From: Escherichia coli
Lineage (GTDB): Bacteria > Pseudomonadota > Gammaproteobacteria > Enterobacterales > Enterobacteriaceae
Length of the DNA: 64,000 nucleotides
NCBI RefSeq assembly: GCF_050320075.1
Contig: NZ_CP190018.1
Strand: one strand, 5' to 3'
The position numbers and the translations under genes are program-made. Below, in pieces: positions 49,794 to 60,941 of this stretch. The notes below the pieces were generated by a model. It was not told the DNA's origin. It did no database searches and saw nothing but the letters and a program-made list of their open reading frames with translations. Position 1 is the first letter of the stretch; the number at the start of each line of letters is the position of its first letter.

Positions 49794-49910
49794 GGGGAAG
49801 AGCATCTTACGATACTCCTCGCTAATTTAAAAACGAACGGTGCTGAGCACCGTTTTTAATCACCTCGCCAGAACCTACCAGAATATGATGTTGGTGGTAA
49901 TGACTCCAAC

Positions 49911-50414
49911 TTATTGATAGTGTTTTATGTTCAGATAATGCCCGATGACTTTGTCATGCAGCTCCACCGATTTTGAGAACGACAGCGACTTCCGTCCCAG
50001 CCGTGCCAGGTGCTGCCTCAGATTCAGGTTATGCCGCTCAATTCGCTGCGTATATCGCTTGCTGATTACGTGCAGCTTTCCCTTCAGGCGGGATTCATAC
50101 AGCGGCCAGCCATCCGTCATCCATATCACCACGTCAAAGGGTGACAGCAGGCTCATAAGACGCCCCAGCGTCGCCATAGTGCGTTCACCGAATACGTGCG
50201 CAACAACCGTCTTCCGGAGACTGTCATACGCGTAAAACAGCCAGCGCTGGCGCGATTTAGCCCCGACATAGCCCCACTGTTCGTCCATTTCCGCGCAGAC
50301 GATGACGTCACTGCCCGGCTGTATGCGCGAGGTTACCGACTGCGGCCTGAGTTTTTTAAGTGACGTAAAATCGTGTTGAGGCCAACGCCCATAATGCGGG
50401 CTGTTGCCCGGCAT
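49911..50414 (-). CDS. insB: IS1 InsB (expressed as InsAB' by frameshifting)
   Basis: 167 aa; canonical IS1 InsB sequence. Confidence 0.95.
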
Positions 50415-50608
50415 CCAACGCCATTCATGGCCATATCAATGATTTTCTGGTGCGTACCGGGTTGAGAAGCGGTGTAAGTGAACTGCAGTTGCCATGTTTT
50501 ACGGCAGTGAGAGCAGAGATAGCGCTGATGTCCGGCGGTGCTTTTGCCGTTACGCACCACCCCGTCAGTAGCTGAACAGGAGGGACAGCTGATAGAAACA
50601 GAAGCCAC
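50333..50608 (-). CDS. insA: IS1 InsA
   Basis: 91 aa, [18 protein letters not shown]... Confidence 0.95.
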
Positions 50609-50783
50609 TGGAGCACCTCAAAAACACCATCATACACTAAATCAGTAAGTTGGCAGCATCACCGACTTCAACTTAAGAACATTTTCCGCCGATTCTTTCG
50701 CCATATCCTTACGGATCTGCTGTTCACAACCAGCATCTCCACTACATTCTTTATAGCGTTCAGTATACTTCTGCGGGCTACCT

Positions 50784-51203
50784 TTGCTTAAGGAGTTATT
50801 CTCAACTTCCACCTTCGCTGTGTTGGAGGAAAAACCGCTGCTGCGTCAGGTACTGACGCATGCTTCCCCGCTGAACGGGGGCATTCGTCTTAATAGCTTG
50901 TCCGAGATGACGTCATACAGCGCCCGGCACATTAACCGCTTCTGCCAGGAGAGGATTGGCGTTTCCTGGAAATCGTTTGTCCGTATTCTCAGAGTAAATG
51001 AAGCGTGCCGGCGCATCCATCACGGCGTGGTCGATTTGCGCACCCTTGCTTGTGACCTCGATTTCCATGATCAGGCCCATTTCAGCAAAGATTTCAAAAT
51101 GCTTTGTGGTGTAACGCCGTCTGACTATCAGCGGAACCTGCCGCATTTCTATGCCGAGGAGACGAAACTGTGTATGAATCTGCCGGGTCGCTATGCCCGG
51201 TGA
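50784..51203 (+). pseudogene. AraC-family regulator, C-terminal HTH fragment truncated by IS1
   Basis: AraC-type HTH residues (HFSKDFKMLCGVTPSDYQR); N-terminal sensor domain missing; abuts the IS1 end. Confidence 0.55.
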
Positions 51204-51319
51204 CGATTGCGCTACCATAACACCGGATACACTCGGAACAGATACGGGCCATGCGGCTTTTACGGAATTGATACCGCCGTTACCAACGGTATCAAGATCT
51301 TCCCGCTACAGACTGCTTA

Positions 51320-53014
51320 TCAGAATGAGGTGCGCTTGTACTGAAGATACTGCGGCTCCCAGAATCCGCTCGAAATGTTATGTTGCAAGGTTTCCTGCGG
51401 GATATTTACGGCGACGCCATCACGTTGAGCAGCCAGAGCAACATCAAGGGCGATGGCCTGCGTCACCTGCCGGATGTCATTAATACTGGGCAACAGCGGA
51501 CCACGCCCGTCGCGCACCAGCGGCGAACAACTTGCCAGCGTGCGGCTGGCCGCCATCATCATGTTATCCGTGACGCGTGTGGCACGGCTAACCATCACGC
51601 CGAGACCCACACCAGGGAAGACATAAACATTATTGCATTGTGCAACAGGATACAATTTTCCCCCGTGGCTTACCGGCTCGAACGGGCTGCCGGTGGCGAT
51701 TAACGCGTTACCATCGGTCCAGCGCAGAATATCTTCCGGCCGTGCCTCTGCGCGCGAGGTTGGGTTGGAAAGTGGCATAACTATCGGTTGCGAACAGTGA
51801 CGATACATTTCCCCGATCACCGCTTCGCTGAATAGTCCTGGCTGCCCGCTGACGCCAATCAGAACGGACGGTTTAGCCTGGCTTACCACGTCCATCAGCG
51901 AGTACGCCTCCTGCTGACCGCCCCAGCTCGCCAAACGCGACCGCGGCTGCGCCAGCGGTGACTGGAAAGGAGCCTGATTAGTTTGATCGTCCGTAAGCAG
52001 GCCAAAGCGATCCACCATGAAAATGCGTGAACGGGCCTGCTCATCGGTCAACCCTTCAGCCACCATCTGCGTGACGATATGTTCGGCAATGCCACATCCG
52101 GCCGATCCCGCGCCCAGGAAGACTACCGTTTGGTCACATAACCGACGTTGGGAGGCCTGGCTTGCCGCCATCAGGCATCCCAAAGTCACCGCTGCGGTAC
52201 CCTGGATATCATCATTAAAACAGCAGATCTCATCACGATAGCGGGTCAGCAGCGGCATCGCCGTCTGTTGGGCAAAATCTTCGAACTGTAATAGCACGTC
52301 CGGCCAACGGCGCTTAACCGCGCGGATAAACATCTCGACGAACTCAAAATATGCGTCGCCGGTGATGCGCGGATGACGCCAACCCATATACAAAGGGTCA
52401 TTGAGCAATTGGGAATTGTTCGTTCCCGCATCCAATAAGATTGGCAGCGTATGCGACGGCTTAATACCACCGCAGGCGGTGTACAACGAAAGTTTGCCGA
52501 TAGGAATCCCCATGCCGCCAATTCCCTGATCGCCCAGGCCGAGGATCCGCTCCCCGTCAGTGACGACAATCACCGAAATATTCTGCTTTGTGGCGTTATG
52601 CAATATTTCGTCGATCATATGCCGGTCCGGCCAGGCGATGAATAATCCCCTGGCGCGGCGATAGATGTCGGAAAAGTGTTCACACGCATGTCCGACTACC
52701 GGGGTATAAATAATCGGCATCATTTCCACCAGGTGCTTGCTCACAAGGTGATAAAACAGCGTCTCGTTGGTATCCTGAATATTGCGCAGAAAGATATGAC
52801 GGGCAATATCCGACTTGATATCCAGGAATTGCTGATAGGCCCGCAGCGACTGCTCTTCAATCGTCTCAACCGCTGCGGGCAACAGCCCGCTCAGGTTAAA
52901 CATTGCGCGTTCTGTTTCAGTAAACCCGCTGCCTTTGTTCAGCAGCGGGGATTCCAGTAATACCGGGCCTGCATAAGGGATATAAAGTAAATTGTCTGTG
53001 ATTTCGTGGGTCAT
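51320..53014 (-). CDS. NAD-dependent malic enzyme paralog (MaeA/SfcA family)
   Basis: 564 aa; clear similarity to MaeA along its length ([54 protein letters not shown]) but divergent. Confidence 0.85.
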
Positions 53015-59316: not shown

Positions 59317-59640
59317 CGGCGGCTGTAACGGCCTCTCCCGTGTTTTCGATATTATGCGAGAGAGGCTGCCAACTCATGAAAGAGGATATCTCCCGGTATA
59401 TTCTGCTCTTCGCTGTGAGTTCAAAGCAGACCTTGCTGCGCTTCAGGCGGTCCGCTTCGTGCCCAGGCTGTGTAAAAACTCGGTTTTTTCAGTATCTGAG
59501 GACTAACACCAGCAGGGATGCAAGATATTCCTGATATGGGCTGTATTCGCAGTGATTTGTATGTTGAGGCAAAACGAGACTTTGTGGCTTGATATGGAGT
59601 ACTAATGGCCAGTTATTAGGAGTTAAAGCGGCCACTGCCG

Positions 59641-60087
59641 CTAGCTGCATCGTTCTCGCAGCTTAATGGCCAATCCTTCGGCCCCCCAGATGGACATCAT
59701 CCTCTTCAGGTTATAAGCCAGTACATGCAGACTGATTTCTGTGCTGACGTTTTTAAACCGTTGCGTCAGGAAGTGAGTCGCTCCCATCCACATCTTAATT
59801 GTCCCGAACGGATGCTCTACCGTTTGCTTTCGCACGACAGCTGTTTGTGGCGATGCATTAAGCCTGGCTTGCATGTCTTCCATTTCTGCTTCATGAACCC
59901 AGCGCTTTATACGCCTCGGATCGCGTTTTGATGTGGTGCACCTTGACCGCTGACTGCAATCGCGACAGGCAATATTGTTAAAGTACATTTGCTGTTCTAA
60001 ACCATCCTCAACCATCGTAAATCGGTTCTGAAGTTCTTCACCCATCGGGCAAATATAAATATCTTTTTCCTGGTCATATTTGAACAA
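59641..60087 (-). pseudogene. DDE transposase C-terminal fragment (IS5/IS1182-like), truncated
   Basis: 148-aa ORF with transposase-like C-terminus (HPFGTIKMWMGATHFL); no N-terminal part. Confidence 0.5.
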
Positions 60088-60222
60088 TGAACGATTGAAA
60101 AGACCTTTACGGTCAGCGCCAGAGGTATCGCCTTTTGGTACTAAGGCTACGGCACCTAAGTCCTGCGGGTGATGCTGCCAACTTACTGATTTAGTGTATG
60201 ATGGTGTTTTTGAGGTGCTCCA

Positions 60223-60498
60223 GTGGCTTCTGTTTCTATCAGCTGTCCCTCCTGTTCAGCTACTGACGGAGTGGTGCGTAACGGCAAAAGCACCGCCGGA
60301 CATCAGCGCTATCTCTGCTCTCACTGCCGTAAAACATGGCAACTGCAGTTCACTTACACCGCTTCTCAACCCGGTACGCACCAGAAAATCATTGATATGG
60401 CCATGAATGGCGTTGGATGCCGGGCAACAGCCCGCATTATGGGCGTTGGCCTCAACACGATTTTACGTCACTTAAAAAACTCAGGCCGCAGTCGGTAA
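60223..60498 (+). CDS. insA: IS1 InsA
   Basis: Identical protein to the copy-1 InsA. Confidence 0.95.
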
Positions 60499-60920
60499 CC
60501 TCGCGCATACAGCCGGGCAGTGACGTCATCGTCTGCGCGGAAATGGACGAACAGTGGGGCTATGTCGGGGCTAAATCGCGCCAGCGCTGGCTGTTTTACG
60601 CGTATGACAGGCTCCGGAAGACGGTTGTTGCGCACGTATTCGGTGAACGCACTATGGCGACGCTGGGGCGTCTTATGAGCCTGCTGTCACCCTTTGACGT
60701 GGTGATATGGATGACGGATGGCTGGCCGCTGTATGAATCCCGCCTGAAGGGAAAGCTGCACGTAATCAGCAAGCGATATACGCAGCGAATTGAGCGGCAT
60801 AACCTGAATCTGAGGCAGCACCTGGCACGGCTGGGACGGAAGTCGCTGTCGTTCTCAAAATCGGTGGAGCTGCATGACAAAGTCATCGGGCATTATCTGA
60901 ACATAAAACACTATCAATAA
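60417..60920 (+). CDS. insB: IS1 InsB
   Basis: Differs from the copy-1 InsB at one residue (R vs S). Confidence 0.95.
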
Positions 60921-60941
60921 GTTGGAGTCATTACCGACACA

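Follow-up and report, generated by a model that had tools for sequence, protein, structure and literature searches.

An inverted pair of IS1 copies and the module between them

The DNA considered here, referred to as the window, is a stretch of 64,000 nt of Escherichia coli contig NZ_CP190018.1, which matches the E. coli SM107 chromosome at 100% identity and is a leuX-associated island. Our subject is a pair of copies of the insertion sequence (IS) IS1 that face in opposite directions and enclose a module of metabolic genes, together forming an 11-kb unit (Table 1). A repeat search run over the whole window gave a single long inverted repeat, with arms of 768 nt each and a spacer of 9,504 nt, and these arms are the only IS1 copies that the window contains. 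A preliminary description of the locus had proposed two complete, opposite-facing IS1 copies around a metabolic module of ~9.5 kb, and in lengths, spacing and gene content it was accurate. The gene content was established from the RefSeq annotation of SM107, whose locus is identical, together with an NCBIfam profile scan. The two copies are named here for the end of the module that each adjoins, the 'h' end having the helix-turn-helix (HTH) gene and the 't' end a transposase fragment.

Both copies are labelled as IS1A family by RefSeq, and they are identical at 766/768 positions, the differences being at IS1 positions 103 (synonymous) and 444 (serine versus arginine in InsB'). In each, the right inverted repeat (IRR), GGTAATGACTCCAACTTATTGAT, points outward and the left inverted repeat (IRL), GGTGATGCTGCCAACTTACTGAT, points inward to the module. 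Each has a 91-residue InsA, an InsB' frame that is open and, at position 305, the frameshift motif TTAAAAAAC; InsB' scored 145.6 bits (cutoff 100) with the NCBIfam model NF033558 (transpos_IS1). By length, by their imperfect terminal inverted repeats of ~23 bp and by insA and insB' open reading frames (ORFs) linked through a -1 frameshift at an A6C motif into InsAB', both copies are IS1, and from their sequences both look functional.

Table 1. Features of the IS1-bracketed unit and its outer flanks, in window coordinates.
Feature	Position	Strand	Basis or remark
Outer flank P: phytase-like esterase gene, intact (48450-49793), and the intergenic sequence downstream of it to IS1	48450-49895	+	
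IS1 (IS1A-type), h-side copy	49896-50663	-	IRR 49896-49918 outward; IRL 50641-50663 toward module
h-side IS1 ORFs	insA 50333-50608; insB' frame 49911-50414	-	Intact ORFs; A6C frameshift motif
N-terminal remnant (~49 codons) of 233-aa hypothetical ORF, cut by h-side IS1	50664-50812	-	Full ORF in IS1-less L015/L016
139-aa ORF, only AraC-type C-terminal HTH domain	50784-51203	+	AraC-family profiles of NCBIfam matched only in their C-terminal ~90 residues
NAD-dependent malic enzyme (oxaloacetate-decarboxylating malate dehydrogenase)	51320-53014	-	NF010052, 852.5 bits (cutoff 326); RefSeq
DcuC-family C4-dicarboxylate transporter	53102-54478	-	NF037994, 420.5 bits (cutoff 100)
MurR/RpiR-family transcriptional regulator	54762-55649	+	Weak NCBIfam matches to RpiR/MurR/HexR models; RefSeq
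Class-II fumarase/aspartase-superfamily lyase, specificity unassigned	55703-57073	-	Models of adenylosuccinate lyase, CMLE and XcbD matched at ~300 bits, none reaching its cutoff
Outer-membrane porin	57492-58541	+	RefSeq 'porin'; weak full-length PhoE match
DUF4886 protein	58552-59316	+	RefSeq; SGNH/GDSL hydrolase in one record; no NCBIfam match
IS1182-family element remnant, truncated by t-side IS1	59464-60167	-	Transposase C-terminal fragment 59641-60165
IS1 (IS1A-type), t-side copy	60168-60935	+	IRL 60168-60190 toward module; IRR 60913-60935 outward
t-side IS1 ORFs	insA 60223-60498; insB' frame 60417-60920	+	Intact ORFs
Outer flank A: 3' part of 3,498-bp autotransporter gene	60936-64000	-	Stop codon 6 bp from IS1; gene runs past window end

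IS1A is highly active both in insertion and in recombination between IS copies, and it generates target-site duplications (TSDs) of 8-9 bp (PMC5009759). The 9-bp flanks in the window read GATGTTGGT-IS1-GACTTCAAC for the h-side copy and AGTCCTGCG-IS1-GACACATCA for the t-side copy. No TSD was found at 8, 9, 10, 11 or 14 bp under simple, composite-outer, inner or post-inversion/duplicative-inversion models (the best agreement was 3/9 at 9 bp), nor is there a direct or reverse-complement relation of 8-14 bp between any pair of flanks; the absence of a 9-bp duplication at either copy had been seen from the start. As the sole history of the pair, this excludes two simple insertions, insertion as a composite, a simple inversion after insertion and duplicative inversion in one step. 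The lack of TSDs is no argument against the identity of the copies as IS1, since a TSD is a trait of a fresh insertion and its loss is to be expected after an adjacent deletion or IS-IS recombination.

The unit occurs in both orientations

The 5,426 complete E. coli genomes surveyed, plasmids included, were compared with each locus oriented by its module, which was present at an identity of at least 99% in ~65 of them. In the window the order is P-IS1-h..t-IS1-A, where P and A are the outer flanks of Table 1. In strain 3CM it is A-IS1-h..t-IS1-P, and the outer flanks of 3CM are exact reverse complements of those of the window, ending at the IS1 boundaries; 118C_1_fosA3 has the same inverted arrangement. 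A second such pair is formed by TUM1880 (D-IS1-h..t-IS1-A) and 1517k (A-IS1-h..t-IS1-D), in which D is a flank with a PD-(D/E)XK nuclease and each swapped flank is identical at 3000/3000 positions. The third was found on the related plasmids p2273-PO3 and p22AR0118B, whose RepB-side and IS3-side backbones are swapped as reverse complements. Flipped forms with breakpoints inside IS1 are hence known for three independent flank pairs, i.e., P/A, D/A and the plasmid backbone, and an identical module haplotype was found in both orientations. Inversion by homologous recombination is marked by the existence of both orientations, by breakpoints that do not leave the repeats and by flanks exchanged as exact reverse complements, and all three are present here; at 768 bp and 766/768 identity, the IS1 arms are of a length and similarity sufficient for RecA-mediated recombination.

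The full window-type configuration was found in 10 genomes, and in one more with an internal gap, and the fully inverted configuration in 2. Partial configurations comprised t-A only (12 genomes), P-h only (1), A-h only (9) and t-P only (2), and a further 10 genomes have other flanks on both sides. The preliminary description had named TSDs, or one uniform configuration among relatives, as findings that would speak against IS1-mediated rearrangement; neither was found, and the configuration differs among related genomes.

Several observations were made in passing on these genomes. The unit has an apparent internal gap in NZ_CP032989 (W2-5), and in NZ_CP133919 (M21170) it appears to be interrupted by an insertion with a PD-(D/E)XK nuclease gene. 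A flip between laboratory substrains of MRE162 was sought and not found: pMRE162 FRA and UK share one arrangement, and their records are merely reverse-complemented. About half of the complete genomes with the IS1-bracketed unit came from chicken, turkey, duck or poultry meat, and the others from human, dog, mink, sheep or water, these being raw proportions.

Deletions and exchanged flanks at the outer ends of IS1

Several of the differing outer contexts are explained by losses of DNA beside the unit. In HCM-21C-2 the t-side IS1 is joined to window position 38921, reading leftwards (38921 to 36422) with 100% identity over 2.5 kb, which corresponds to a loss of 10,974 bp from a precursor in the inverted orientation. 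On the h side, the flanks of IS1 map at 400/400 positions to the SM107 chromosome, in EC052 at 4402334 and in HCM-21C-2 at 4402384; the respective losses from the inverted form are 37,650 bp and 37,700 bp, and the region from the probable aatA gene of flank A (see below) through the dnd/dpt genes is gone. These deletions start exactly at the outer ends of IS1. The proposal of IS1-mediated deletion or inversion in the preliminary description was thereby borne out on both counts, with exact inverted forms in three flank contexts and deletions that run precisely from the IS1 outer ends.

Flanks have also been traded. The t-side IS1 of PK8241 (L006) is IS1A-like to approximately position 444 and then has 17 differences over positions 486-764, and this mosaic copy coincides with a new outer flank, consisting of a fragment of a group II intron reverse transcriptase and a LacI-family sugar cluster. 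It is a recombinant of two IS1 variants and marks an exchange of the flank by IS1-IS1 recombination. Across strains, blocks of single-nucleotide polymorphisms (SNPs) that distinguish IS1A from IS1B are patchily common to both copies, in a manner resembling gene conversion. In seven clonal CUVET isolates (from dog and hospital floor; L022 from 15541), the t-side IS1 abuts yghQ-yghR-yghS-yghT, a distant core-chromosome locus, and this junction implies a larger IS1-mediated rearrangement or a relocation of the island.

The junctions in genomes without IS1

Copies of the module that lack IS1, at 99.9% identity, have uninterrupted sequence over both inner junctions (TUM9754, AH25). On the h side, the native sequence in L015/L016 runs from ...CCCAGCAA directly into GACTTCAAC..., and the ORF that IS1 has cut is that of the 233-residue hypothetical protein, on the strand opposite the AraC-like ORF and complete at L016 3448..4149. 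The preliminary description had each IS1 copy abutting a truncated gene, with an AraC-family fragment on this side. Truncation of the AraC-like gene by IS1 was rejected, as the ORF begins 120 bp from IS1 and has the same length and protein (WP_224479530.1) in genomes without IS1, including TUM9754; it is the hypothetical ORF that is cut instead.

On the t side the same claim held, the IS1182-family transposase being truly truncated by IS1. Colinearity with the IS1-less TUM9754 stops at window position 59463, and the order of events there was apparently that an IS1182-family element inserted at 59464 and was then cut by IS1 at 60167. The C-terminal third of its transposase was kept (profile positions 333-487 of the 488 of NF033551), and an intact IS1182-family transposase on a Citrobacter freundii plasmid matches the fragment at 99.4%.

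Both outer flanks also exist in uninterrupted form. In MDR_56 the P side reads ...GATGTTGGT followed by TTATTATCAC... and continues into RpiR and phosphotransferase system (PTS) genes, and in L007/L008 the A side reads ...ATAATGTAAA followed by GACACATCAG..., the native upstream sequence. Since uninterrupted versions of the inner and the outer junctions exist, all four are points of IS1 insertion from which the partner halves have been removed. The junction of P with IS1 is present without the module in L73, and a simple IS1 insertion with its TSD surviving at the h junction was found in 0/9,597 records.

The genomes without IS1 also bear on which arrangement came first. The module of TUM9754 sits in a tRNA-Phe island, with neither P nor A within ~30 kb, so the ancestral arrangement cannot be reconstructed from this strain. 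AH25 and four similar genomes (L015) have an IS-free fusion, in which the module as far as window position 58609, just inside the DUF4886 gene, is followed by an RpiR' fragment and the phytase-like gene. The orientation seen in 3CM may be the older one, in that genomes of the AH25 type, in their native state and without any IS, have the module's t side next to the P region.

A comparable arrangement was noted in 2017.04.03CC (L007, selC island), from which the module is absent: the probable aatA gene is bracketed there by inverted IS1 copies at 4107-4874 and 9057-9824, beside the tRNA-Sec integrase. On such comparisons, blocks bracketed by IS1 seem to recur as components of these islands.

Probably a passive cargo, flipped by recombination between its IS1 brackets

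We consider it highly probable that the module is a passive cargo between inverted IS1 copies, that it is flipped by homologous recombination between them, and that the TSDs were lost through later adjacent deletions and IS1-IS1 exchange. The inverted repeats of 768 bp would serve as the substrate for the host's homologous recombination machinery, and a crossover within IS1 would flip the block and leave all four junctions between IS1 and other DNA unchanged. IS1-mediated adjacent deletions, starting exactly at an IS1 end, would remove the outer-side halves of TSDs, and recombination with other IS1 copies would swap the outer flank; the TSDs would be missing because these later events took place on the outer side of each IS1. 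That recombination between IS1 copies yields inversions has been reported (PMC4173774). In the present case, the genome comparisons show the two orientations, the IS1-confined breakpoints, the IS1-anchored deletions and the mosaic IS1; we infer a RecA-dependent crossover, the order of events and the ancestral orientation.

There are points that weigh against this explanation. The flipping is known from assembled genomes alone, and not as an event within a culture or as a rate. The IS1 SNPs, being shuffled among strains, give no single crossover interval; e.g., the P-adjacent copy carries 444T in the window and 3CM and does not in SM107, EC052 or PK8241. This shuffling fits repeated conversion, though it is no direct trace, and together with the mosaic IS1 it is consistent with dependence on the RecA machinery. 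The founding events are not reconstructable, as no genome has an h-junction insertion with a TSD or a contiguous P-A. It is also conceivable that a segment between inverted repeats of this length was mis-oriented in assemblies made without long reads, which is unlikely given several independent assemblies for each state.

The alternative that survives best is that the two IS1 copies and the module constitute an active composite transposon, and that transposase acting on the outer IRR ends moved the 11-kb unit between plasmids and chromosomal islands. IS1 compound transposons are familiar from Tn9 (direct copies, cat), Tn1681 (inverted copies around a heat-stable enterotoxin gene) and, on pColV-K30, the aerobactin region with its flanking IS1 (inverted copies), and they are defined by transposition with a flanking 9-bp duplication. 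The likeness is considerable, in that two IS1 copies surround accessory cargo on plasmids and chromosomes, inverted as in Tn1681 and the aerobactin region. The architecture is also that of a compound transposon, with two IS copies, intact outer ends and transposase genes that look functional in both. In every IS1-bracketed copy examined the inner junctions are identical, and the outer flanks differ in at least eight contexts (P/A, D/A, E/P, H-NS, yghQ, group II intron/LacI, an IncHI1B-type RepB plasmid backbone and GPEC1035); the unit is found on three kinds of plasmid.

What the unit lacks is the signature of having moved as a whole. No direct repeat of 8-10 bp surrounds it in the window or in L002, L004, L005, L006, L012, L013 or L014. 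An empty site for the chromosomal flanks, sought with a query that joined P and A, was found in 0/799 records at a query coverage of at least 80% among the 5,426 genomes, so that P and A are never contiguous nor separated by a single IS1 in these records. An empty plasmid site was likewise found in 0/2,128 records from 72,556 plasmids, the right flank in that search being an IS3 copy cut by IS1. In addition, several of the seemingly new contexts map to the same leuX island as deletions from an IS1 end, and one new flank coincides with the mosaic IS1, a signature of homologous exchange. Here, then, unlike in Tn9, Tn1681 and the pColV-K30 region, neither a duplication nor an empty site was found in any context, and the cargo is a metabolic block of dicarboxylate type rather than a resistance or toxin gene. 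We regard movement of the unit by composite transposition as unlikely, and classing it as a demonstrated composite transposon as unsupported. Similarly doubtful is the broader proposal of an unnamed, still-active compound transposon that would spread a block for di- or tricarboxylate uptake and catabolism among RepB/IncHI1B-type plasmids and the islands of largely poultry-associated E. coli, its TSDs having been erased later by IS1. The suggestion in the preliminary description that the segment is potentially invertible or mobilisable as a composite unit was thus half sustained: it is invertible, being found in both orientations, but with no flanking TSD and no empty site, composite mobilisation in the strict sense finds no support.

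A duplicative inversion, in which the inverted pair was made in one step by intramolecular replicative transposition that copied IS1 in inverted form and flipped the intervening DNA, is still less probable. IS1 is able to transpose replicatively, and the geometry fits, there being two inverted copies with like ends outward. However, this event should leave reverse-complement copies of a TSD on the inner side of one IS1 and on the outer side of its partner, and these are absent (RA against the reverse complement of RB, 2/9; LA against the reverse complement of LB, 1/9). The inner junctions also lie in unrelated native sequences, i.e., the hypothetical ORF and the IS1182 element, a better fit to two separate insertions. 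As a founding event, duplicative inversion could have had its signature erased by later deletions.

That the apparent inversions are artefacts of assembly is very improbable. From short reads, an assembler has no means of orienting DNA that lies between inverted repeats of 768 bp, and repeats longer than the reads leave its orientation undetermined in short-read assemblies. All of the records are of 'complete genome' level, however, and each orientation is present in several independent assemblies (10 of window type; the 7 clonal CUVET isolates, all A-h). Furthermore, the deletions of EC052 and HCM-21C-2 presuppose the inverted form, and their junctions in unique sequence are independent of how repeats were resolved.

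That a site-specific recombinase flips the segment as a programmed, phase-variable switch can practically be dismissed: the fimB and fimE invertase genes are in the same window (~7-8.7 kb), but the segment neither contains nor adjoins a recombinase gene, its repeats are complete IS1 copies rather than short recombinase sites, and the flip makes no promoter or coding switch, since on both outer sides it meets the 3' ends of convergent genes, so that the dedicated recombinase, short repeats and promoter or coding switch of a fimS or Hin/Gin-type system are all wanting. With no recombinase, promoter switch or coding switch tied to the flip, a regulatory role for it is unlikely.

Relation to known IS rearrangements

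The closest precedents for recombination between inverted IS1 brackets are the IS-IS rearrangements of E. coli long-term evolution and mutation-accumulation lines (PMC4173774, PMC5009759), where inverted copies of the same IS invert the DNA between them, deletions are anchored at pre-existing IS copies, and IS1A is among the most active elements. Those rearrangements arose de novo in the laboratory (PMC4173774, PMC5009759), whereas here we are dealing with a natural polymorphism of wild isolates, on a scale of 11 kb. A further difference is that here one IS1 pair has been used recurrently, in three flank contexts that include a plasmid.

IS-bracketed segments that can be inverted or deleted, and cargo flanked by IS1, have long been known, and this locus adds a fresh example of IS1 recombination and deletion of the known sort, with no new mechanism; the current understanding of IS1 is unchanged by it. 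No paper on this particular unit was found in the literature searched. Its interest is as a natural illustration of how one IS1 pair can reshape a genomic island, the 11-kb unit having been flipped at least three times independently, and the same pair having removed 11-38 kb of its surroundings and traded flanks with further IS1 copies. Two lessons follow for practice. Where an IS pair has no TSDs around it, IS activity should not on that account be taken as absent, and the orientation in which blocks between IS copies are assembled in these lineages is a genuine polymorphism, for which long reads are needed.

The cargo and the island around it

Grouped with a porin, a DcuC-family transporter, malic enzyme, a DUF4886 protein and an RpiR-type regulator, the lyase suggests uptake and catabolism of some di- or tricarboxylate, as far as gene content can indicate. 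The solved structures closest to the lyase are those of the trans-aconitate decarboxylase Tad1 (247.8 bits) and of 3-carboxy-muconate cycloisomerases (CMLE). A version of this six-gene block is present at ~85% identity in CDE2901-yvys (L017 4327-13012), where it has a different HTH gene and no IS1 brackets. The cargo lies beside what is probably an adhesin gene of APEC (avian pathogenic E. coli) and is also carried on plasmids, and its metabolic function may for these reasons merit testing.

The adhesin in question is the autotransporter of flank A, whose RefSeq coding sequence is 3,498 bp and has an IS91 fragment upstream. The APEC autotransporter adhesin gene aatA was described by Dai et al. 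in 2010 (PMC2944236) as a 3,498-bp ORF with IS91/IS2-type sequence on its 5' side and IS1 on its 3' side, located on chromosomes and plasmids with varying flanks. The right-hand neighbour of the unit fits that locus in size and IS flanks, and it is on this agreement, not on direct alignment, that we call it probably aatA; the paper, in contrast, has neither the IS1-bracketed metabolic block nor an inversion of it (PMC2944236).

The order of the island is fim, nanC/M, defence and prophage-like genes, the unit between P and A, IS debris, dnd/dpt, a phosphoethanolamine (PEtN) transferase, an integrase and tRNA-Leu. Within the window, positions 13215-24164 hold a phosphorothioate-sensing restriction endonuclease with a cluster of helicase, methyltransferase and SNF2 genes, and just beyond the window (L025 19157-34009) there is a phosphorothioation defence system, dndBCDE/dptFGH, in complete form. 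The window also has direct repeats of 84-95% identity, ~6.2 kb apart, at 37266-37698 and 43420-43861 (also 34513/41128), which overlap annotated degenerate transposase genes and are probably IS fragments.

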